The translations under genes and the position numbers were made by a program. Under the pieces are notes generated by a model. It was not told the DNA's origin and made no database searches. It saw only the letters and a list, made by a program, of their open reading frames with translations. A stretch of 64,000 bases of DNA, from positions 1-64,000 of IMG/VR virus record IMGVR_UViG_3300033075_001504; one strand, 5' to 3'. The first letter of the stretch is position 1; each line of letters opens with the position of its first letter. Below, piece after piece: positions 20,951 to 63,702 of this stretch. This DNA is from a virus (taxonomy: Duplodnaviria; Caudoviricetes).

Positions 20951-21294
20951 GACTGCGCCACCTCGGGCACGGAGCCATCGAGCAGGTAGGCCTCGATCAG
21001 CGAGGCCTCCTTGAGCACCTGCTCGACCGGCTTGGTGTTGTAGTCCGCACGAGCGATGGTGACTGCGAAGGACATCGCGTTCATCCGGACCGCCTCGGCC
21101 GAATAGTCCTCGTGCTTGTAGACCGTGCGGTCCACCACCACCTCGTTGACCGAGGTGCGGTCCACCACCACCTCGTTGACCGAGTGCAGGTGGGCCTCGC
21201 TGATGAGGAGCTTGCTCGCCTCCCCGGGCGCTGCCTTGTCGATCGCCTCCTGCACGCGCTCGGCGGACAGGTTCAGGTGGGTCTCGTGGGTCAT
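20947..21294 (-). CDS. Hypothetical protein
   Basis: 115 aa ORF with internal 10-aa duplication. Confidence 0.7.
   Translation of the reverse strand: MTHETHLNLSAERVQEAIDKAAPGEASKLLISEAHLHSVNEVVVDRTSVNEVVVDRTVYKHEDYSAEAVRMNAMSFAVTIARADYNTKPVEQVLKEASLIEAYLLDGSVPEVAQS
21125..21184. repeat. Perfect 30-bp tandem duplication
   Basis: GTGCGGTCCACCACCACCTCGTTGACCGAG twice; encodes SVNEVVVDRT twice. Confidence 0.95.
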
Positions 21295-44396: not shown

Positions 44397-45881
44397 ATGG
44401 ACAAGTTCAGCATCGACAAGGCCGCGCACTTCGCCCAGATCGTGGACGACCTGACCAAGCTCGGGAAGGCCGGGAACGCCGGTGGCTACACCGAGCCGGT
44501 GATCTACACCCCGGGCGTGCAGATCGGCATCCCGGAGGGCATGAGCGACGCGGTCGCGATCGACACCCTGACCCAGTACGTCGCGGACAAGCGGACGATG
44601 ACGACGGTGGTCAAGGAGGACTACGGCTACAAGCCCTGGGACGTCGCGGCCGCCACGGCGCGCGTGCTGGCCAGCCAGTTCGGCATCACCACCCAGCGGG
44701 GCCGCGGCTCCCAGATCGAGGTCCAGTGCGACATCGACAAGGTGATGTACGTCCCGTGGGGCGAGGTGCAGGTGCCGCAGATCAAGGCCACCATCACCAT
44801 CGACTCCACCGACCTGGGCGACGGCATGGGCAGCGTGGGCCGCACCACGATCGAGCTGCCCAAGCTGTTCGAGGACGCCGCCCGCGGTGTGCACCAGCTC
44901 GTCGCCGCCGAGCTGGCCCAGCACTCCATCTACCGCGGCAAGGCGATCACGTCGGACGAGAAGCCCCGCTTCCTCAACCCCTACGTGACCGACCGCAACA
45001 ACATCGTGTGGTCGCACTCGACCCGCGCGGCCCTCATGGGCTCGGTCATCAACGTCATCCGGCACTCCGACCGGGCCAAGGAGCGGGGCATCGACCTCAA
45101 CCGCCCCGTGCTCTGGTACGGCGAGCCGGGCAACGGCAAGACCGAGACGATGAACATCGTCGCGCAGGAGGCCCTGGAGCACGGGTGGTCGTTCATCCAG
45201 TGCAACGGCACGCTGCGGGACCTCGTGTCCACGCTGCGCTACGCCCGCCGCCAGGGCCGCCACGTCGTCGCCGTCGAGGACTTCGAGCGCCTCATCAACG
45301 ACGCCACGCAGCAGGACCGAACGGACCTGCTCGAGGAGCTCGACGGCGCGACCAGCAAGGGCAGCGAGGTGCTGCTCGTGGCGACGACGAACTTCCTGGA
45401 GGACCTCAACGTCCACCAGGCGGCGCGTCGGCGCTTCTTCAAGGAGATCCACTTCGGTCCCCTCGACAGCCAGGGCGTGGAGAACCTGCTGCGCATCACG
45501 CTGGCGGGCACGGCCGCGGCCGACGCCGGGGAGTCCATCCCGGTCGAGGAGCACAAGCGGACCATCCACGAGGACGCGGACTACACCACGATGAACTACG
45601 CGAAGGTGACCCGCGCCCTGGACGGCTGGGGCAACTCCTACATCCGCAAGGTTCAGGAGTTCGCGCAGAGCATCGCGCTGGCCCACGCCGAGCCGCACCT
45701 CACCACTGCCGACCTGCTCGACGCGATCGAGGCCTACACCCCGGACTGGCAGGCCTACCTGGCCTCCCAGGGCCGCGCGGAGGAGCGGACCTTCGAGTCC
45801 GAGTTCCGCAAGGTCGTCCGCGAGGAGGCCAAGGCGGGCAAGGTCAAGAAGGCCGAGGAGAACGCCCCCACGATGTCCTAG
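44397..45881 (+). CDS. AAA+ ATPase with long N-terminal domain (494 aa)
   Basis: Walker A GEPGNGKT, Walker B VAVEDFE, LEELDG, ATTN, RRFFKEI. Confidence 0.88.
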   Translation: MDKFSIDKAAHFAQIVDDLTKLGKAGNAGGYTEPVIYTPGVQIGIPEGMSDAVAIDTLTQYVADKRTMTTVVKEDYGYKPWDVAAATARVLASQFGITTQRGRGSQIEVQCDIDKVMYVPWGEVQVPQIKATITIDSTDLGDGMGSVGRTTIELPKLFEDAARGVHQLVAAELAQHSIYRGKAITSDEKPRFLNPYVTDRNNIVWSHSTRAALMGSVINVIRHSDRAKERGIDLNRPVLWYGEPGNGKTETMNIVAQEALEHGWSFIQCNGTLRDLVSTLRYARRQGRHVVAVEDFERLINDATQQDRTDLLEELDGATSKGSEVLLVATTNFLEDLNVHQAARRRFFKEIHFGPLDSQGVENLLRITLAGTAAADAGESIPVEEHKRTIHEDADYTTMNYAKVTRALDGWGNSYIRKVQEFAQSIALAHAEPHLTTADLLDAIEAYTPDWQAYLASQGRAEERTFESEFRKVVREEAKAGKVKKAEENAPTMS

Positions 45882-45885
45882 ACCC

Positions 45886-46005
45886 GGTCAGGCTCGGTGG
45901 GGTCAGGCTTGGTGCGGCCCGGCGTGGAGCGGCTAGGCGTGACACGGCATGACAAGGCATGGCGTGCCATGGCAGGGCCTGGACCGGACTGGCAGGGCAC
46001 GGCAC
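45886..46005 (+). repeat. GGY-NN pentamer array A (24 units), candidate guide RNA
   Basis: All 24 units start with G, 18 with GGY; last two bases variable; begins at the ATPase stop codon. Confidence 0.9.
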
Positions 46006-46008
46006 GGG

Positions 46009-46034
46009 GGGGCGGGATCTTCGGGTCCCGCCCC
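46009..46034 (+). terminator. Intrinsic terminator closing array A
   Basis: GGGGCGGGATC-TTCG-GGTCCCGCCCC then TCTT. Confidence 0.75.
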
Positions 46035-46059
46035 TCTTCCCATCTACGAACGGAGAGAC

Positions 46060-46593
46060 ATGAAGAAGTTGATCATCCCGCTGCTGGTGGCCGCCGCGCT
46101 GCTGGCCGGGTGCGCGGACTCGTCCCAGCGCAAGGACGCCCAGGTGGCCAACGACCAGCTCGGGCAGTACCTCCAGGCGCAGCCGGTGCCGGTGTTCAAG
46201 TGGTCCCAGGAGCGGGCCACGATGGTCGCCATCATCAACGCCCGGGCGACTACGACGGCGACCACGACGTTCTTCTTCAACCAGGGCGTCAAGGACCCGA
46301 TCATGTCCTGCCCGTCGATCGGCTACCCGATCGCATCCTCGACCCAGCTCACCAACCCCGACACCGAGGTGGGCGGGCAGGGCGCGGTCGTGGCGCAGAT
46401 CGACCCGCCCGGCGTCTACACAGGGGACTCGACGGGCACCTACGTGCTCTGCACGGCCTCCTCGGGCACCCGCTACCCCTTCTACTGGGAGGGTTTCGTC
46501 GCTACGGTCGGCGGGGACGCTGTCTGGGACAGCGCGAAGGGCGAGGCCGTCATGCAGGGCGAGCCGACCGTGAAGGTGGAGACCAAGAAGTGA
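46060..46593 (+). CDS. Lipoprotein
   Basis: MKK signal with LAGC lipobox; SIGYPIASSTQLTNP...GVYTGDSTGTYVLC. Confidence 0.82.
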   Translation: MKKLIIPLLVAAALLAGCADSSQRKDAQVANDQLGQYLQAQPVPVFKWSQERATMVAIINARATTTATTTFFFNQGVKDPIMSCPSIGYPIASSTQLTNPDTEVGGQGAVVAQIDPPGVYTGDSTGTYVLCTASSGTRYPFYWEGFVATVGGDAVWDSAKGEAVMQGEPTVKVETKK

Positions 46594-46925
46594 GCGGCTA
46601 CGACAACTACGGCGACCGGCCGTCCAAGGACATGGCCCGCATCGTGATGTGGACCCTGTTCGCAGTGGTGCTGGTCGCGGCCGTCACGCTGCTGTGGGTC
46701 TACGTGGTGAGCCCGCTGCTGATCTCCCGCAACGCGGAGAACCTCCAGCGGACCTACGGGGCCCAGTCGGCGAAGATCGACGCGGCCCGCGAGGCGATCA
46801 CTGCGGCGACCGTAGCCACCAACCCGGCGAGCAAGAAGGCGCTGACCATCCAGGCGTGCCATCTCATCGCCGACGTGAACGACCCTCCCGGAGACCTCGC
46901 CTCCTTCGAGGCGACCGACTGCTGA
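46590..46925 (+). CDS. Membrane protein
   Basis: Single TM; GTGA coupling to the lipoprotein. Confidence 0.75.
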   Translation: MSGYDNYGDRPSKDMARIVMWTLFAVVLVAAVTLLWVYVVSPLLISRNAENLQRTYGAQSAKIDAAREAITAATVATNPASKKALTIQACHLIADVNDPPGDLASFEATDC

Positions 46926-47151
46926 GCCACGGCGTGGCACGGCGTGGCCGGATAGGGCGGGGCAGGTCCAGCCCAGGTCTGGCAAGGCATGACTCGGCAG
47001 GGCATGGCACGGCATGGCCGGACCAGGACAGGCATGGAGGGGCTGGGCAAGGCAAGGCTAGGACTGGCCCGGCGAGGCGCGGTTTCGGCCCGGCAAGGCT
47101 AGGCAAGCCCCGGCAGGGCCGGGCTTGGCAAGGCACGGCAGGACGTGGTCA
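46926..47151 (+). repeat. GGY-NN pentamer array B (45 units)
   Basis: 31 pentamers, one hexamer (GGTTTC, 47081-86), 13 pentamers; starts immediately after the TGA. Confidence 0.9.
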
Positions 47152-47171
47152 TCACAACTCTGGAGGTCCCG

Positions 47172-47696
47172 ATGAAGTACACCTGGTTCCCTGACGCTTC
47201 GCGGTTCATCGAGGAGTGGGGGCTGTCGCACGCCGACGTCGAGGACGTCGCCGATCACCCGACGACCGTCGCGGTCAACGCGCTCTCGGTGAGCAAGGGC
47301 TACCCGGTCGAGGACCGGCGGCGCGGTGACGTGACCGTCGTGGTCGGTCTCCGCGAGGAGCAGCCGTCCATCCTCTACGTCCGGGTGCACCTCCCGATCC
47401 ACACCACCAGCGGCCTGGGCTCGCAGCAGCCGAGTGGATCGGGCTCCGAGCTTCCCCGCACGATGCGGGGGCTCCGATCCAAGATCGTGGCCGAGGGCTA
47501 CCGGATCGAGGCCGGTGGCAAGCACGACCGGGTGCTCACCCCGGACGGCGACTTCCTCTGCGCGATCTCCGTGACGCCATCGGAGTACCGATCGATCGCC
47601 AACGACTGGCTGGCGTTCCGGCGAGCGGCGGACAAGCACGCAGTCAAGAGCCGCGCGCTGCGCGGTTCCCTCTACCTCGAGGAGACCGCCCCCTGA
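47172..47696 (+). CDS. Two-domain putative RNase: RelE/DUF4258-like N-terminus plus HicA-like C-terminus
   Basis: C-terminal GYRIEAGGKHDRVLTPDG..CAISVTPSEYRSIAN resembles the HicA-like fold; N-terminal assignment tentative; GGAGG RBS. Confidence 0.55.
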   Translation: MKYTWFPDASRFIEEWGLSHADVEDVADHPTTVAVNALSVSKGYPVEDRRRGDVTVVVGLREEQPSILYVRVHLPIHTTSGLGSQQPSGSGSELPRTMRGLRSKIVAEGYRIEAGGKHDRVLTPDGDFLCAISVTPSEYRSIANDWLAFRRAADKHAVKSRALRGSLYLEETAP

Positions 47697-47701
47697 CCTA
47701 C

Positions 47702-47881
47702 GGCGCGGCTGGGTGAGGCACGGCCAGCCTCGGCGAGGCGTGGCTGGACAGGACAAGGCCAGGACGGGTTAGGCAAGGCAAGGCCAGGACAGGCGTGGCA
47801 GGTCTCGGCTTGGCAAGGCAGGACCAGCCTTGGTCGGGCTAGGCATGCACGGGTTCGGCGAGGCGCGGCGTGGCACGGCTG
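47702..47881 (+). repeat. GGY-NN pentamer array C (36 units)
   Basis: Unbroken 5-nt phase over 180 nt; starts 5 nt after the TGA. Confidence 0.9.
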
Positions 47882-47882
47882 C

Positions 47883-47910
47883 GGGCCCCATCACCGCGGT
47901 GGTGGGGCCC
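47883..47910 (+). terminator. Intrinsic terminator closing array C
   Basis: GGGCCCCATCACC/GGTGGTGGGGCCC then TTTG. Confidence 0.75.
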
Positions 47911-47918
47911 TTTGCTGT

Positions 47919-48149
47919 GCCAAGGCGAGCCGGGACATGGCGTGGCTTGGTAAGGCGTGACACGGCGTGGCACGGCTGGATCTGGCCTGGCAAGGCGCGG
48001 CTGGGCAAGACCGGGCAAGTCTGGGCCCGGCAAGGCGGGCCAAGGCGCGCCGAGCCGTGGCGACGGCGAGGCACGGCAAGCCCGGGCGTGGCGAGGCAGG
48101 GCGCGACACGGCAAGCCCGGTCTCGGCGTGGCACGGCAAGGCAAGGAAC
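47919..48149 (+). repeat. GGY-NN pentamer array D (46 units)
   Basis: 29 pentamers, one extra C (48064), 17 pentamers; ends 32 nt before the RAMP gene. Confidence 0.9.
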
Positions 48150-48181
48150 CATCCATCGAACAGGAAGGCAAGGACAGAACC

Positions 48182-48847
48182 ATGGCACGTACGAGCACGA
48201 TGAATCAGGAGCCCGTCGCCCTCGGTGGTGACGTGAGCAACGCAGGGGAGAGCGCGATCCTCACGGGGGCGCCCTACATGGCGACGGTGACCATCAAGGG
48301 CACCGCGCCGATCCTGTTCCACCGCTGGCAGACCGACGCGGTGGAGGCCAAGGCGAAGGCGGCCAAGAACTCCACGGCCAAGAAGACCGACGACGTGGAG
48401 TCCTACGTCTACCGCGACGAGCAGGGCGTCATCTGCCTGCCCGGCGTCTACCTGCTCGGGTCGATCACCGACCCGCGCAATGGCGCGGCCAAGTACCGGC
48501 AGGACCCGCGGTCCCCGCGCAAGAGCGCGCTGGACCTCTACAAGGCCGGGGTCATCGCGATGACCGACCTCGCGCCGATCACCCGTGCCGACGGCGAGCT
48601 CGCCACGGCGTGGGACTACACCGACCGCCGCCGGGTCACCGTGCAGCGGGCGGGCATCACCCGCGAGCGCCCGGCGTTCGCGGCGGGCTGGTCGGCCACG
48701 GTCGACTTCATGGTCACCACGCCCGAGTACATCAAGCCCGCCGACCTGCTCGACGTCCTCACCAAGGGCGGCCTGCTGGTCGGCGTCGCGGACTACCGGC
48801 CCACCTTCGGCCGGTTCCAGGTGGTCAACTTCGCGGAGATCCCGTGA
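48182..48847 (+). CDS. Solo Cas7/RAMP-like protein (candidate Vipr-type effector)
   Basis: Beta1 ATVTIKGTAPILFH; ICLPGVYLLGSI (compare Cas7 'YIPGSSLKGAL'); thumb-like RRRVTVQRAGITRERP; C-terminal G-loop GLLVGVADYRPTFGRFQV. Confidence 0.78.
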   Translation: MARTSTMNQEPVALGGDVSNAGESAILTGAPYMATVTIKGTAPILFHRWQTDAVEAKAKAAKNSTAKKTDDVESYVYRDEQGVICLPGVYLLGSITDPRNGAAKYRQDPRSPRKSALDLYKAGVIAMTDLAPITRADGELATAWDYTDRRRVTVQRAGITRERPAFAAGWSATVDFMVTTPEYIKPADLLDVLTKGGLLVGVADYRPTFGRFQVVNFAEIP

Positions 48848-49293
48848 GCATCCACCTGCGCAACGGGCTGTACACCGCCTGCGGGCGGCAGGTCTCCGGC
48901 ACCATCCGGGCCACCCAGGACACCTCGGCGGTGGACTGCTACCAGTGCCGTTCCACCAACGCGTACGGCGATCGTCTCCGCGCAGACCGGAACCTGACCG
49001 CCCCGCTCCTGAACAGCAACCTCACCGCCGACCAGCACGCCATCAAGGTGGTGCTGGACCAGGTGTTCGAGTCGGCCTACCGGGAGGCGGACGACCAGGG
49101 ATACTGCGACGTCTTCGACGACATCGTGGGCGACATCACGATCCCGTCCTGGTACACCCTGCCTCCGCGCAAGAAGAAGTGGCGGATCTCGGCCCGCTAC
49201 GACTCGACGGTCGACGCGGCCACCGAGGAGGAGGCCCTTCAGGTGATCGCCGAGAACCCCGGCGACTACCTCAGCGTCTACAAGGACTCCTGA
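48844..49293 (+). CDS. Hypothetical protein with N-terminal Zn-finger-like motif
   Basis: H...TACG...VDCYQC; GTGA-coupled to the RAMP gene. Confidence 0.7.
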
Positions 49294-49339
49294 CGTTCGA
49301 CACCGGCTCTATCGTGAGGGACAACCTCGAGGAGGACGC

Positions 49340-49888
49340 ATGATCAAGGCCCTGGCCACGCTCGGTGTGGCCGCCCTGCTGACGCTCGGCACCGCCGGGA
49401 CGGCCAGCGCGCACGAGCACCACCCCAAGCCGTCCTGCTCGCCGTCGGCATCCCCGACCCCGACCAAGACGCCCACCCCGACGCCGACTCCCACCGAGTC
49501 GACGCCGACCCCGACTCCCACCACGGAGTCGCCGACCCCCACGCCGACGACGCAGTCCCCGACTCCGACGCCGACGACGGAGTCACCCACCCCCACCCCC
49601 ACGGAGCCCACCGAGTCGCCCTCGGAGTCTCCGTCCGAGTCGGACTCGCCCAGCGCGACACCGAGCGAGTCCACCGCAACGCCCACGCCGAGCGAGTCGA
49701 GCCCGTCCGCGACGGGGACCCCGACTCCCTCGGTCGACCCGTCCACGACCCCGTCCCCGAGCGTCACGCCTCGGGAGCTGGCGCACACCGGTGACGAGCC
49801 GGGGGTCGTGCTGGGGCTGGGCCTGCTCGCCCTGGGGATCGGCATCGTCTCTCTGCTCGTCACGAGGCGGAGCGGCAGCCACTCCTAG
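49340..49888 (+). CDS. Secreted Pro/Thr/Ser-rich protein with LAxTG sortase anchor
   Basis: Signal peptide ending ASA, (PT)n/TESPTPTP repeats, LAHTG plus TM plus RR. Confidence 0.85.
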
Positions 49889-59175: not shown

Positions 59176-62100
59176 TCAAGGCTTGCGGGCCCGGCTGCGC
59201 CCCTGCGGACCGCGCGCGGAGGTGGTGGGCAGGTCCTCGCGGGCCGCCGTGGTCTCGCCCTTGCCCGAGGCCCGGGACCGGCCGCCGCCCAGCGCGGTGG
59301 TGATCCGTCCGGCGAAGGCGACGAAGGTCGCCAGCGTGCGGGTGGCCACCGACCCGGCGAAGGACAGGCTCGACGCCAGGAGGACCGGGAAGCGGCGCCC
59401 GAAGGTCCCGGTGAAGCTCAGGGCGGCCGAGAGCTGGTAGGGGAACCGGCGGGCGAAGCTCCCGGCGAACAACAGGGCCGCAGAGAGCGCCTTCCCGGTC
59501 CGGCGGGTGATCGTCCCGGCGAGGCCCAGCGAGGCGCTCAGCGCCCGGCTGGTGGCCTTGGTGGTGGCCCCGGTGAAGGTCAGGGTGGCACTCAGCGCGC
59601 GGGCGGGCAGACGGCGGGCGATCGACCCCGCGAAGGACAGCGCGGCCGCCAGGGCGACGGGGAAGCGCCGGGCCAGGTTCCCCGTGAAACCGACCGCAGC
59701 GGACAGCCCCTTGCCCGTGCGCCGGGTCTGGGCGCCGGTGAAGGACAGCGCGGCGGTGAAGGCGCGGGGGAAGGCCCGCAGGAAGGAGCCGGTGAAGGAC
59801 AGCGCTCCGGCCAGTGCCTTGGACGTGCGGCGGGCCTGGGTGCCGGTGAAGGTGAGGGCGGCGCTCAGCACGAACGCGGTCCGGCGCAGCGCGAAGGCCC
59901 CGGCCAGCCCCAGGCTTGCAGCCAGCCGGGTCCTCACCGCCCGGGTCTGGGAGCCGGTGAAGGTGAGGGCGCCCGACAGGCTGCGGAAGAAGGTCTTGAC
60001 CGCGGTGAAGGTGCCGGTGCTGGTCAGCGTCGCGGTGAAGGCGCGAGCGGTGCGCCGCGCGGTCGAGCCGGTGAACGTCAGGGTCGCGGCCAGCGTGGCC
60101 GGGATGCGGCGGGCGATGCTGCCGGTGAAGGACAGCGCGGCGGTCATGGTCTTGCTGGTGCGCCGAACCTGCGACCCGGTGAACGACAGCGACGCGGTGA
60201 AGGCGCGCTGGAGGGCCTGTGCCCCCTGGTTGATCGTCCCGATGAACGAGAGCACTGCGGCCATCGCCTTGCCCACCGAGCGCGTCTGGGACCCGGTGAA
60301 GGAGAGCGCGGCGGCGAGGCCCTTGCCGGTCTGCTTGGCCGCCACCGACCCGGCGAAGGAGAGCGCCCCGGCCACCGATCGGGCGACCCGGCGGACCTGG
60401 GAGCCGGTGAAGGACAGGGCGGCGGTCATCGTCCTGCCGACCGAGCGGACCTGCGACCCGGTGAAGGTCAGCGCGCCCGCCACGCCCTTGCCGGTGCGCA
60501 GCGCAGCGGAGCCCGCGAAGGAGAGCGCCCCGCTGGCCGTCTTGCCGGTGCGACGCACCTGGCTGCCGGTGAAGGAGAGCGCGCCGCTCAGGGCCCGGGT
60601 CAGGGCCAGCCCGGAGAGCAGGTTTCCGGTGAAGGAGAGCGCCCCGCTCAGGCTGCGCGCGACCCGGCGCACCACCGACCCCGTGAAGGAGAGCGCGCCG
60701 GTGAGCAGCTTGGCGACGTTCCGCGTCACCGATCCGGTGAAGGACAGCGCGGCGGTCATGGCCTTGGCGGCGCTGCGCGCCAGGGCACCCGTGGAGGACA
60801 GTGCGCCCGACACCGCCTTGGCCGTGCGGCGCACGACGGAGCCGGTGAACGACAGCGCCCCGGCCAGCGGTCGGGTGGTCTGCTTGACCTGACTGCCGGT
60901 GAAGGAGAGCGCAGCGGTCAGCGTCTGGCTGAACGCGTGGCTGCCCGAGATGAAGCTCGTAGCCACTGCCCCGGCGAAGGAAAGCGCGGCGGCGAAGACG
61001 CGCGAGGACTGCTTGGCCACCACTCCGGCGAACGAGAGGACGGCGGTGGTCGTCTTGGCAGTGCGCCGGGCCTGGCTGCCTGTGAAGGTCAGCGTCGCCG
61101 CCACGCTCTTCCCGGTCCGGCGTGCCTGGGCTCCAGTGAACGACAGCGCGGCGCTCAGCGCCTTGGGGAAGGCGCGCAGCACCGCCCCGGTGAAGGTGAG
61201 GGTGGCCGCGAGCGCCCGAGCGGTCCGCTTGGCCACCGCCCCGGTGAAGGACAGCGCGCCTGCGACCGCCTTGGAGACCGAGCGGGCGACGGCACCGGCG
61301 AAGGAGAGTGCGGCGCTCGTGCGCTTCTGCGTCTGACGGACCAGGGGCGTGCCGCCACTGAGCCCCGAGGTCCCCGCGGCGTAGAGGTTGGCGATCTCGG
61401 TCGAGGACAGCGCCCGGTCCCACAGCGCCCACCCAGCCTGGGTGCCATCGGTCGTCGCCGAGGTGTCCCACTGGTGGTTGAGGTAGATGGTGGACTGGGT
61501 CCAGGCGCTGGCGGGGGTGGCGCCGACCGTGCCCTCGGACGCCCCCTGGACGTAGAGGGTGACGAACGAGGAGACGCCGGTGAGGTTGTTGATCGTCCCC
61601 GCCACGAAGTAGGTCTGCCCGGTCGTGATCGTCGTGGTCCCCGTCGCCACGCGCCAGGCGCCCCCGTCGAACATGCCTGCGGTGAAGACCGAGCTCCCGC
61701 CGCCGCTCGCGTGACCGACCCAGAGCGGGATGCTCGACCCCGACGCCCACCCCAGACCGCAGAGGAACGGGTCGGCGGCGTTGTCGGTGCACTTCCACCA
61801 GCCCGCGAACGTCAGCGCGGTCCAGGACGCAGGCGCGGACGTGGCCACGGTGGCGTAGGTACCGCTGCTCGACGGGAACCGGACCGCGCCGCCCCCGCCG
61901 CTGTAGATCGCCGCCTGCCCCAGGGTGGGACCGCTCTGGTAGGTGCCGTTCGTGCCCAGGGACCCCGAGTCCGTCATGGTCGTGCCGGACGGCTCGTCCA
62001 TCTTGTAGAAGAACTTCGGGGCCAGCGCCAGCACCGCAGCGTTGTAGGCGATGGAGTTGAAGGACAGGGCGCCGCTCAGGGACCGGGAGAAGAAGCGGCT

Positions 62101-63702
62101 CGAGGCGAACGAGCCGGTGAAGGAGAGAACTCCTGCGACGGTCTTGGCCGTCCGACGGGCCTGGGCCCCGGTGAAGGAGAGCACTCCCGCCACGGCCTTC
62201 CCGGCACGGCGGGTCTGGCTGCCGGTGAAGGACAGCGCACCGGCCAGGGCGCGACCGGGCAGGCGCAGGAAGGCACCGACGAAGGCCAGCGAGGCCGCCA
62301 GGGCGCGGGCGGTCCGCTTGGCCGTCGATCCCGTGAAGGACAGGGCGGCGGCCGCCAGCGTCTTGGCCGTGCGGAAGGCGTCGCTGCCCGTGAAGGAGAG
62401 CGCGGCGGTCTGCTTCTTGGAGACCTGGGTCTCGAGCAGTCGGCGCATCGAGACGTTGTCCACCCAGGTGAGCTCGCCCCCGGTGGTCGCGTCGGCGTTG
62501 ATGAAGCCCAGGAAGGCTCCGCCGCCGGTGAAGCCCAGGCCGCCGGTAGGGGTGATGTAGCAGCCGATGGTCTCCCAGGTGTTGGCCGTGCCGCTCGTGG
62601 TGGCCGACAGCCCCGGCGCGGCGGAGATGAACAGCGCACCGAACAGGTCGGCGAGCTGGACGCGCTTGGTGGTGTTGCTCCGGACCCGGGCGGTGACCAG
62701 GTAGACGCCGTTGTCCAGGATGTCGGGCGGGATGTTGGTGATCACGGCCGCGCCGGAGTTCCCGGCGGACGCGGCGGGCCAGGTGAGCTGGTAGGAGTAG
62801 GTCCCGGTGTCCACCTGGGCGGTGGACTGGTCGAACGCGGTGAGCGCGGTCAGCCCGATGATGGCCCCGGTCCAGCCCACACCGCCCTCGTGGGCCAGGT
62901 CGTACTCGGCGGTGCGGTCCTTGGTGCGGATGGCCTGGTTGAACTCCAGGATCGAGGACAGCGCCTGGTTGTAGTTGTTGGCGGTCGCGGCCGGGAGGAT
63001 GGCCACGCCGATGGCCGCGTGCTCGTCGGAGGCGGCCCAGGACCACGACAGGTTCTGGTCGGTGTAGCGCCACGAGCAGACGTAGGACATGTTGCTCGAC
63101 GTGCCGCAGATGTAGCTCGCCAGGTCGAGCTGGGTGACGGCCCGGGTCGCTCCGGTGGTGGACCGGGCGGACTCGATGCCCAGGAACAGCGCACCGGGGA
63201 CCAGCGTGGGGGTCAGGGTGTCCGACGTGCCGGTGGTTGCCGCGTTCTTGATCGCGGTGGCCAGCGGGGTGGTCGCGCTGGCCTTGTAGAAGGAGACCGC
63301 GGTGGCGGCGGTCGGGATCACGCCCGAGTTGGTGACCACCACGTTGCCGGTGGCGGCAGTGGGGCTGGTCAGGTACCAGACCTCAGCCCGGCGGTTCGAC
63401 GCGTTGGCCGAGGAGAGAACGGTGTCCCACTTCGTCAGCGCCGTCCCGTTCCAGGTGACGCCCGTGGTGGTCTGCGCGCCGTTGGGTCCGGTCGCCACCT
63501 CTACCACGACGAGGTTTGCCCCGGTCGGGACGGTCAGCGACCAGCTCGCGGAGTTGGTCGAGACCCCGGAGGGGTAGGAGGAGAACGAGGCGATCTCGAC
63601 GGTCTCGTGCAGGAAGCCAGTCCCGTAGTAGGCCTCCGGGACGGAGAGCGGGTACCAGCCCGCGTACTTGAGGGTCGGCTCGAAGACCTCGCGGAGGGCC
63701 AC
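59176..63702 (-). CDS. Large virion fibre protein (1508 aa) with 18-aa ALSFTGS repeats and a LamG-like domain
   Basis: Period-18 repeat (e.g. ALSFTGSQTRRAGKAVAG); central FFYKMDEPSG...GWALWDRALSSTEIANLY LamG-like domain. Confidence 0.78.
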   Translation of the reverse strand: MALREVFEPTLKYAGWYPLSVPEAYYGTGFLHETVEIASFSSYPSGVSTNSASWSLTVPTGANLVVVEVATGPNGAQTTTGVTWNGTALTKWDTVLSSANASNRRAEVWYLTSPTAATGNVVVTNSGVIPTAATAVSFYKASATTPLATAIKNAATTGTSDTLTPTLVPGALFLGIESARSTTGATRAVTQLDLASYICGTSSNMSYVCSWRYTDQNLSWSWAASDEHAAIGVAILPAATANNYNQALSSILEFNQAIRTKDRTAEYDLAHEGGVGWTGAIIGLTALTAFDQSTAQVDTGTYSYQLTWPAASAGNSGAAVITNIPPDILDNGVYLVTARVRSNTTKRVQLADLFGALFISAAPGLSATTSGTANTWETIGCYITPTGGLGFTGGGAFLGFINADATTGGELTWVDNVSMRRLLETQVSKKQTAALSFTGSDAFRTAKTLAAAALSFTGSTAKRTARALAASLAFVGAFLRLPGRALAGALSFTGSQTRRAGKAVAGVLSFTGAQARRTAKTVAGVLSFTGSFASSRFFSRSLSGALSFNSIAYNAAVLALAPKFFYKMDEPSGTTMTDSGSLGTNGTYQSGPTLGQAAIYSGGGGAVRFPSSSGTYATVATSAPASWTALTFAGWWKCTDNAADPFLCGLGWASGSSIPLWVGHASGGGSSVFTAGMFDGGAWRVATGTTTITTGQTYFVAGTINNLTGVSSFVTLYVQGASEGTVGATPASAWTQSTIYLNHQWDTSATTDGTQAGWALWDRALSSTEIANLYAAGTSGLSGGTPLVRQTQKRTSAALSFAGAVARSVSKAVAGALSFTGAVAKRTARALAATLTFTGAVLRAFPKALSAALSFTGAQARRTGKSVAATLTFTGSQARRTAKTTTAVLSFAGVVAKQSSRVFAAALSFAGAVATSFISGSHAFSQTLTAALSFTGSQVKQTTRPLAGALSFTGSVVRRTAKAVSGALSSTGALARSAAKAMTAALSFTGSVTRNVAKLLTGALSFTGSVVRRVARSLSGALSFTGNLLSGLALTRALSGALSFTGSQVRRTGKTASGALSFAGSAALRTGKGVAGALTFTGSQVRSVGRTMTAALSFTGSQVRRVARSVAGALSFAGSVAAKQTGKGLAAALSFTGSQTRSVGKAMAAVLSFIGTINQGAQALQRAFTASLSFTGSQVRRTSKTMTAALSFTGSIARRIPATLAATLTFTGSTARRTARAFTATLTSTGTFTAVKTFFRSLSGALTFTGSQTRAVRTRLAASLGLAGAFALRRTAFVLSAALTFTGTQARRTSKALAGALSFTGSFLRAFPRAFTAALSFTGAQTRRTGKGLSAAVGFTGNLARRFPVALAAALSFAGSIARRLPARALSATLTFTGATTKATSRALSASLGLAGTITRRTGKALSAALLFAGSFARRFPYQLSAALSFTGTFGRRFPVLLASSLSFAGSVATRTLATFVAFAGRITTALGGGRSRASGKGETTAAREDLPTTSARGPQGRSRARKP

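Follow-up and report, generated by a model that had tools for sequence, protein, structure and literature searches.

Four pentamer arrays and a gene for a Cas7-like protein

The window analysed here, a 64-kb stretch of DNA (positions 1 to 64,000 of IMG/VR record IMGVR_UViG_3300033075_001504), is the first part of a complete 76-kb viral record that is rated 100% complete. Between positions 45886 and 48847 it contains four arrays of GGY-NN pentamers, about 150 units in total, which keep a 5-nt phase and all lie on the + strand, together with a gene on the same strand for a 221-aa protein. As the following sections describe, we assign the protein to Vipr, the RNA-binding protein of the VIPR (Viral Interference Programmable Repeat) systems, and the arrays to its vrRNA genes. 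The arrays and the gene are arranged as follows.

45886-46005, + strand: array 1 (A1), 24 units, starting 5 nt past the stop codon of the upstream AAA-ATPase gene
46926-47152, + strand: array 2 (A2), 45 units, with its start at the upstream gene's stop codon
47697-47882, + strand: array 3 (A3), 37 units, directly after the stop codon of a HicA-like gene
47919-48150, + strand: array 4 (A4), 46 units, ending 31 nt before the vipr ATG
48182-48847, + strand: vipr, encoding the 221-aa Cas7-like RAMP

The units were parsed by phasing and dynamic programming over 45500-49300. Two of the arrays contain a +1 register slip, which in A2 is due to an extra C at 47086 and sets off a 13-unit terminal block, and in A4 is due to an extra C at 48064 and sets off a terminal block of 17 units. 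The triplets of the 150 parsed units are distributed as GGC (96), GCC (13), GGT (12), GAC (12), GGA (9), GTC (4) and GAT (2), and GGY thus makes up 72% of the units. The units that deviate are nearly always a single position away from GGY; the first G is missing in just two of them, and 40 of the 42 keep it. The two bases that follow the triplet behave quite differently, with all 16 dinucleotides present and an entropy of 3.85 of 4 bits.

An initial annotation of this region, made from the letters of the sequence, had counted 24, 45, 36 and 46 units. Three of these counts agree with the parse, and the third array has 37 units rather than 36. The strict 5-nt phase, near-constant triplet and freely varying dinucleotide that it described are also borne out by the parse, apart from the slips in A2 and A4. 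The four variant triplets it listed (GAC, GCC, GGA and GTC) are all among those counted above, and the last array does adjoin the 221-aa gene, as it had stated.

The published VIPR array caller looks for GG[C/T]NN in at least 4 units, a definition that the arrays here satisfy. When a simple array caller was run over the whole 76-kb genome, no such array was found elsewhere and none on the - strand. Shuffling the genome 200 times gave a mean of 0.2 arrays, and shuffling the array DNA itself (755 nt) gave 0.02 in-array GGY units vs the 102 observed.

The 221-aa protein is a homologue of SUSP1 Vipr

The protein was modelled with AlphaFold2 from 29 homologues, with a mean predicted local distance difference test score (pLDDT) of 83.3. 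Its parts include beta1 (residues 32-40), RRM helix-1 (residues 88-96), a basic thumb at about residues 146-166 (DRRRVTVQRAGITRERP) and a G-loop at residues 197-212 (GLLVGVADYRPTFGRF). In a Foldseek search of the PDB, the best matches are all CRISPR backbone subunits, led by type VII Cas7 (E 1.4e-6) and followed by Csm3 and Cmr4. VIA-align, which is independent of Foldseek, returned Z scores of 11.4 for a Cmr-beta subunit, 11.2 for Csm3 and 10.5 for type VII Cas7, and CRISPR RAMP subunits (Cas7, Cas5 and Cas6 families) fill its first 38 rows. At the level of the predicted structure, the RAMP fold is confirmed. The initial annotation had recognised a RAMP/Cas7 protein from sequence hallmarks and had proposed structure prediction as a check; the model and both structure searches, with Cas7 and Csm3 among the best matches, agree with it.

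None of Pfam, NCBIfam and PADLOC names a family for the protein. Its sole family match is phrog_4652 (E 1.4e-20), which is of unknown function. The Vipr family to which it belongs is very large and unnamed, with at least 4,917 clusters at 90% identity.

The relation to Vipr was established with SUSP1, an Escherichia phage with a type II VIPR system. A direct tblastn search gave no link between the window protein and SUSP1 Vipr. The same program, with the window protein as query, reached phage DSL-LC04 (53% identity) and Pseudomonas phage Medea1 (30% identity, E 2e-6), and a further search with the Medea1 protein reached phiSUSP1 at E 6e-44, completing a transitive chain. When the 29-sequence alignment was compared with SUSP1 Vipr in hhalign, a match of 97.5% probability was obtained (E 7.9e-12; 165 columns; 35% identity).

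The homology extends to individual residues. In an L-INS-i alignment, H17, R138, D177, R179 and K33 of SUSP1 Vipr correspond to H47, R163, D204, R206 and K62 of the window protein, and these five residues are identical to those of SUSP1 and invariant in the 29 clade members. W178 of SUSP1 corresponds to Y205, a position that is F or Y across the clade, and both the G-loop GVADYRPTFGRF and the basic thumb are invariant across the clade alignment. In the SUSP1 protein, H17 and D177 read G1, R138 and W178 hold G2, R179 helps to hold Y3, and K33 touches the backbone at the skipped base; the substitutions D177A, R138A and K33A each abolish silencing (10.64898/2026.04.26.720927). The Y-pocket residues differ between the two proteins, and the third position is mostly C in the window arrays (GGC 96, GGT 12), whereas the SUSP1 arrays that were read mostly have GGT. 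The link to VIPR, which the initial annotation had offered for verification, is thus upheld by both residue-level and profile homology.

Homologous loci carry arrays on the strand of the gene

We examined loci that encode a homologue of the protein for arrays of the same kind. Among 82 viral loci, same-strand GGY arrays are present at 76 and other-strand arrays at 4, with 3,437 units on the strand of the gene vs 55 on the opposite strand; the GC content of these loci ranges from 36 to 71%. Among 79 loci from cellular genomes and metagenome-assembled genomes (MAGs) of many phyla, same-strand arrays are present at 70 and other-strand arrays at 3, with 2,013 vs 106 units. Combined, 146 of 161 independent loci have same-strand arrays, which is the co-occurrence that the initial annotation had suggested looking for. 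In the closest relatives an array directly follows vipr, and in several of these there is no second gene. Long arrays are usual in the clade, reaching 71 units in one phase and 93 when adjoining in-phase segments are merged.

The related phage at locus L088 offers the nearest comparison. Its Vipr is 75% identical to that of the window and the adjoining AAA ATPase 69% identical, and its arrays of 46, 37 and 39 units have NN dinucleotides that are unrelated to those of the window. GGY accounts for 109 of its 122 units (about 89%) vs 72% here. In array pairs that can still be aligned between loci (775 unit pairs), mismatches at the positions G, G, Y, N and N number 20, 62, 172, 130 and 124; the pairs were chosen to have at least 50% NN identity, and the change at NN is therefore understated.

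Because the fold, the homology with SUSP1 Vipr, the GGY-reading residues and the co-occurrence of arrays all point the same way, we place the protein in the VIPR family. A quite different reading is that the tracts are simple-sequence or G-rich DNA elements, such as G-quadruplexes or protein sites, or else Arg/Gly-rich coding sequence, and that they happen to lie beside an unrelated RRM-fold protein. A GG in every 5 nt could in principle give two-tetrad quadruplexes, and long spurious open reading frames (ORFs) do span the arrays. The 5-nt period, however, is incompatible with coding, same-strand arrays recur at 146 of the 161 loci, which cover many phyla and varied GC contents, and the protein is homologous to a Vipr for which binding to exactly such repeats has been shown (10.64898/2026.04.26.720927). 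On these grounds we consider the reading as DNA elements or coding sequence to be extremely improbable.

Several observations on individual loci may be added. One viral locus (L010, IMGVR_UViG_3300045141_000130) has 222 GGY units upstream of vipr, and the arrays of another (L005) span up to 93 units. Among the cellular loci (L103-L181), the clade is common in MAGs of Planctomycetota (Phycisphaerales), nearly always with same-strand arrays. The clade is also found in Actinomycetota, Proteobacteria, Cyanobacteria, Bacillota, Patescibacteria and others.

Relation to known systems and proposed mechanism

VIPR is a compact CRISPR-related system for RNA-guided DNA recognition, first described in 2026 and proposed to be ancestral to the CRISPR RAMPs. 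The discovery paper (10.64898/2026.04.26.720920) describes Vipr proteins as minimal RAMPs and vrRNAs as 9-16 YNNGG repeats followed by a structured tail. According to this paper, the system reads double-stranded DNA through the NN dinucleotides, with one base skipped per unit, and silences the transcription of competing phages and satellites. Seven types are distinguished there, with array architectures that vary and are named as staggered with overlapping vrRNAs, hammerhead-interspersed and single-vrRNA. For types II-VII it names six vap families, so that a single type has no named vap, and the published systems also show internal degeneracy of the units. One VIPR survey recovers 99 VIPR-like array clusters.

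At the SUSP1 locus, which comprises Vipr, vrRNA1-4 and vap1, we found one array upstream and three downstream with a shared tail, matching the published pattern. The window locus resembles it in having a homologous Vipr with RRM, G-loop and thumb, in GGY-contacting residues that are identical or conservative, and in GG[C/T]NN arrays on the strand of the gene. Both loci are phage-borne and without cas genes, and for neither have self-targets been found. Unlike in SUSP1, the arrays here are interleaved with unrelated cargo genes and have no vap1-like partner. A further likeness is to the published staggered arrays: long continuous GGY-NN tracts in which the next vrRNA begins where one ends. For the +1 slips and double-variant punctuation of the window clade (described below), we found no description in the portions of the discovery paper at hand.

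The class 1 CRISPR Cas7 backbones (Csm3, Cmr4 and type VII Cas7) have the same fold (Z 10-11) at 9-15% identity. In both families the RAMP polymerises on a guide RNA and the thumb periodically breaks the duplex, with a period of 5 nt and 2 read bases here and of 6 nt and 5 read bases in the Cas7 backbones. Unlike class 1 CRISPR-Cas systems, the window locus has no repeat-spacer array, Cas5, Cas6, Cas10, Cas1-2 or small subunit.

These comparisons identify 48182-48847 as the gene for Vipr and the four + strand arrays as its vrRNA genes. We conclude with considerable confidence that the locus is a VIPR system of a complete 76-kb tailed phage, with a mechanism that we infer by homology. It is not a new kind of system, because VIPR has already been published, and its novelty is limited to the architecture, in which very long tail-less arrays are interleaved with cargo genes and no vap partner is present. 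Relative to SUSP1, a layout of about 150 units in four long arrays, apparently within the untranslated parts of cargo transcripts, is new. The locus also adds a well-supported phage member of high GC content to a very large Vipr clade that spans many phyla.

By analogy with SUSP1, Vipr protomers would polymerise along the array transcript, one for each pentamer. Each protomer would flip out and clamp the GGY, with H47 and D204 on G1 and R163 and Y205 on G2, and would leave the NN exposed. The string of NN dinucleotides would then pair with double-stranded DNA reading NN-x-NN-x, in which one base, usually the wobble base of a codon, is skipped, and the filament formed on the DNA would silence the transcription of a competing mobile element. 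The initial annotation had proposed that each subunit clamps one GGY and displays NN, and this matches what the cryo-EM paper reports for SUSP1 (10.64898/2026.04.26.720927), from which it would carry over to the window protein.

Array ends and possible guide blocks

For A1, A2 and A3, a few bases at most separate the start of the array from the stop codon upstream. The 3' end of A2 leads directly into the ribosome-binding site of the next gene, and A4 likewise runs into the ribosome-binding site of the gene that follows it. The other two arrays end in hairpins.

46006-46037, + strand: GC-rich hairpin with a UUCG loop that caps A1; minimum free energy -30.2 kcal/mol
47883-47910, + strand: intrinsic-terminator-like hairpin ending A3; 12 bp, 9 G-C pairs, -28.8 kcal/mol

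The hairpin after A3 is followed by a T-rich stretch (TTTGCTGTG). The hairpin after A1 is likely to be a terminator or a 3' cap; it was missed by a consensus terminator scan because it has no clear T-tract. The initial annotation had described two arrays as ending in strong terminators, and two do end in very stable hairpins. We also considered that the arrays might themselves be structured RNAs and rejected this, since the RNA folding z-scores are only -1.1 (A2) and -2.3 (A4). A hammerhead-interspersed architecture was rejected as well, as no Rfam match was obtained at E up to 1.

The arrays may be transcribed within the 3' or 5' untranslated regions of the + strand genes around them, given that they start at stop codons and that only two of the four have a terminal hairpin. 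When a single deviant unit is tolerated in the calling, ten in-phase blocks emerge from the four arrays, with lengths of 19, 7, 9, 11, 13, 9, 13, 10, 22 and 10 units. The median in-phase block across the clade is 13 units, and the junctions seen most often between blocks clade-wide are a pair of deviant units (10 nt, found 27 times) and a +1 slip (found 14 times). By cutting or protection, the transcripts would then yield some ten blocks of guide size (7-22 units), for which pairs of non-GGY units or +1 register slips would serve as punctuation.

Extended to the clade, this picture would have guides carved from long, tail-less arrays embedded in mRNAs, with deviant pairs and +1 slips breaking the Vipr filament. 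Alternatively, filaments would form on whole arrays, with up to 46 protomers and footprints of ~137 bp. We put forward this pair of schemes tentatively and consider it rather unlikely that they describe the clade. If either were true, carved or whole-array guides would amount to a biogenesis or ruler mechanism unlike the SUSP1 model, and if punctuation governs processing, it would matter for the setting of guide length and for the engineering of such systems.

Composition of NN, target searches and alternative roles for the arrays

The GC content of the NN positions is 45% vs 69% genome-wide, and 28% of the NN dinucleotides have no G or C, where the two wobble-containing codon frames predict ~1%. 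Codon positions 1-2 of high-GC genes account for this composition better than either wobble frame does, by >140 bits. The composition is thus compatible with wobble-skip logic and is no proof of it.

Targets were sought by the published 1-nt skip rule, with skips of 0, 2 and 3 as controls. No self-targets were found for the window arrays in their own phage genome, and other VIPR systems are likewise reported without self-targets in the discovery paper (10.64898/2026.04.26.720920). The window arrays, and then all 211 array segments from all loci, were compared with ~0.9 Mb of related loci, and only background was seen, with no enrichment at skip 1. Exact 10-unit seeds of A2, A4 and A1 gave no match in a viral collection, and neither did 9-unit seeds from the 3' ends of A3, A1 and A4. 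An 8-unit A1 seed gave 6 exact matches in the viral collection and a 9-unit A4 seed gave 8 in a metagenome collection, with agreement outside the seed at chance level in both cases. Finally, two 13-unit patterns, allowing up to 3 mismatches, were found neither in five Vipr-bearing actinobacterial MAGs nor in 401 sampled genomes of the class of one of these MAGs.

Several of the results weigh against the assignment of the locus to VIPR, or against parts of it. No natural target was found in any of the searches run, which covered a small part of the possible seeds and, in the viral and metagenome collections, admitted exact matches only; 28% of the units are not GGY. A uniform model of NN fits as well as the codon-1-2 model does. 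The arrays have 24-46 units each, where SUSP1 has four vrRNAs of ~100 nt with 9-16 units. In place of the conserved 3' pseudoknot tail of SUSP1, plain hairpins follow A1 and A3 only and the other two arrays run into genes, and no conserved 3' tail or pseudoknot was found. Clade-wide, the 45 nt past the arrays are not significantly more structured (p = 0.09), and an Rfam search over 45500-49500 returned no hammerhead, no CRISPR RNA and no other family. There is no conserved vap gene at the locus, and the scheme of blocks and punctuation is suggested by the patterns of units alone.

Two of these points, the non-GGY units and the lack of targets, would favour the reading that the system is a true relative of VIPR in which the arrays act mainly as decoys or sponges for the Vipr of a rival, or as cis regulators of the cargo genes. 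In the cis variant, coating of the untranslated regions by Vipr would control the stability or translation of the mRNA. The arrays are embedded in mRNAs, in the stretch from a stop codon to the ribosome-binding site that follows, which would suit such a role, and orphan vrRNAs have been published as redirecting the VIPR systems of rivals (10.64898/2026.10.15.759431). The phage, however, has its own intact vipr with all of the RNA-reading residues, and its cargo genes are not conserved along with the arrays. The near-maximal entropy of NN and the complete difference in NN between relatives also fit stored target information better. We therefore judge a decoy or cis-regulatory role to be improbable as the main one.

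The lower share of GGY in the window than in the L088 arrays (72% vs about 89%, 109/122), the two register slips and the lack of targets might instead indicate that the VIPR locus is decaying or inactive and that the arrays are drifting remnants. Against this, vipr is intact and every key residue is invariant, and the deviant units are constrained, being one position off and keeping G1 in 40 of 42 cases. Internal degeneracy is also seen in published systems, and the identical locus was assembled from two independent samples (JGI 3300033074 and SRR32380200). Decay is, in our estimation, very improbable, and the reading of the locus as a VIPR system with the arrays as guides remains the one we prefer.

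Neighbouring genes

The genes that surround the arrays and vipr are as follows.

44397-45881, + strand: AAA+ ATPase with a weak IetA/IteA-like P-loop match (E 2e-10), directly upstream of A1
46060-46593, + strand: 177-aa lipoprotein with a signal peptide and the lipobox LLAGC; weak matches only
46590-46925, + strand: 111-aa membrane protein, between A1 and A2; GTGA overlap with the lipoprotein gene
47172-47696, + strand: 174-aa protein with a C-terminal HicA-like (mRNA interferase) domain, residues 104-144 (PADLOC E 2e-8)
48844-49293, + strand: 149-aa ORF; its GTG start and the stop codon of vipr overlap (GTGA)
49340-49888, + strand: 182-aa secreted protein rich in Thr-Pro repeats, with a 27-nt tandem repeat at 49478-49602

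The AAA+ ATPase recurs, at the 69% identity given above, upstream of the vipr arrays of L088 and is not found in the other 80 loci. The lipoprotein, membrane protein, HicA-like, 149-aa and 182-aa genes do not recur in any of the 80 related viral loci. PADLOC gave no cas match for seven neighbouring ORFs, and none was obtained in Pfam or NCBIfam; a tandem-repeat scan found no CRISPR-like repeats. The initial annotation was thus right that cas genes and CRISPR repeats are missing from the vicinity.

The 149-aa ORF, given its overlap with vipr, was considered as a vap or other conserved partner and was rejected, as it is absent from the 80 related loci; we regard it as cargo. No similarity was found between it and the downstream genes in DSL-LC04, Medea1 or L088. 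A word-seeded search with it returned itself alone, and a search of a protein atlas returned nothing. An exhaustive HMMER search gave ~22 remote homologues, and the three for which the DNA was inspected are surrounded by small phage genes, where neither vipr nor arrays occur. Because the three inspected homologues lack vipr and arrays and no neighbour recurs in the 80 related loci, we conclude that no conserved vap partner is present, and the description of vipr as a solo gene in the initial annotation is essentially right.

Two side observations concern the cargo. The lipoprotein and membrane protein resemble a superinfection-exclusion pair, with support from weak matches at the level of signal peptides. 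The HicA-like 174-aa protein, beside which no antitoxin is evident, may represent a moron, a toxin or a factor in local RNA processing.

The phage and its probable host

The window encodes a tailed-phage gene set that comprises a portal, terminase, head protein, DnaE-type polymerase, primase, DnaB helicase and tape measure, and the GC content of the genome is 69%. The DnaE-type polymerase is only ~35% identical to the polymerases of Gordonia and Brevibacterium phages. In the 182-aa ORF downstream of vipr, an LAHTG motif is followed by a hydrophobic segment and a basic tail, which together constitute a sorting signal of the LAxTG sortase type. Because of this signal and the GC content, the host of the phage is probably Gram-positive and actinobacterial. 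The Vipr homologues gave no host assignment, as the nearest cellular matches are short MAG contigs of several phyla.

Two further sets of repeats were seen in the window. Diverged 54-nt (18-codon) tandem repeats at 60238-60862 and 62113-62250 belong to a very long ORF close to the tail genes; these repeats probably encode a structural or fibre protein with repeat domains and are not CRISPR-like. A perfect 30-nt tandem duplication (2.0 copies, 100% identity) is located at 21125-21184.

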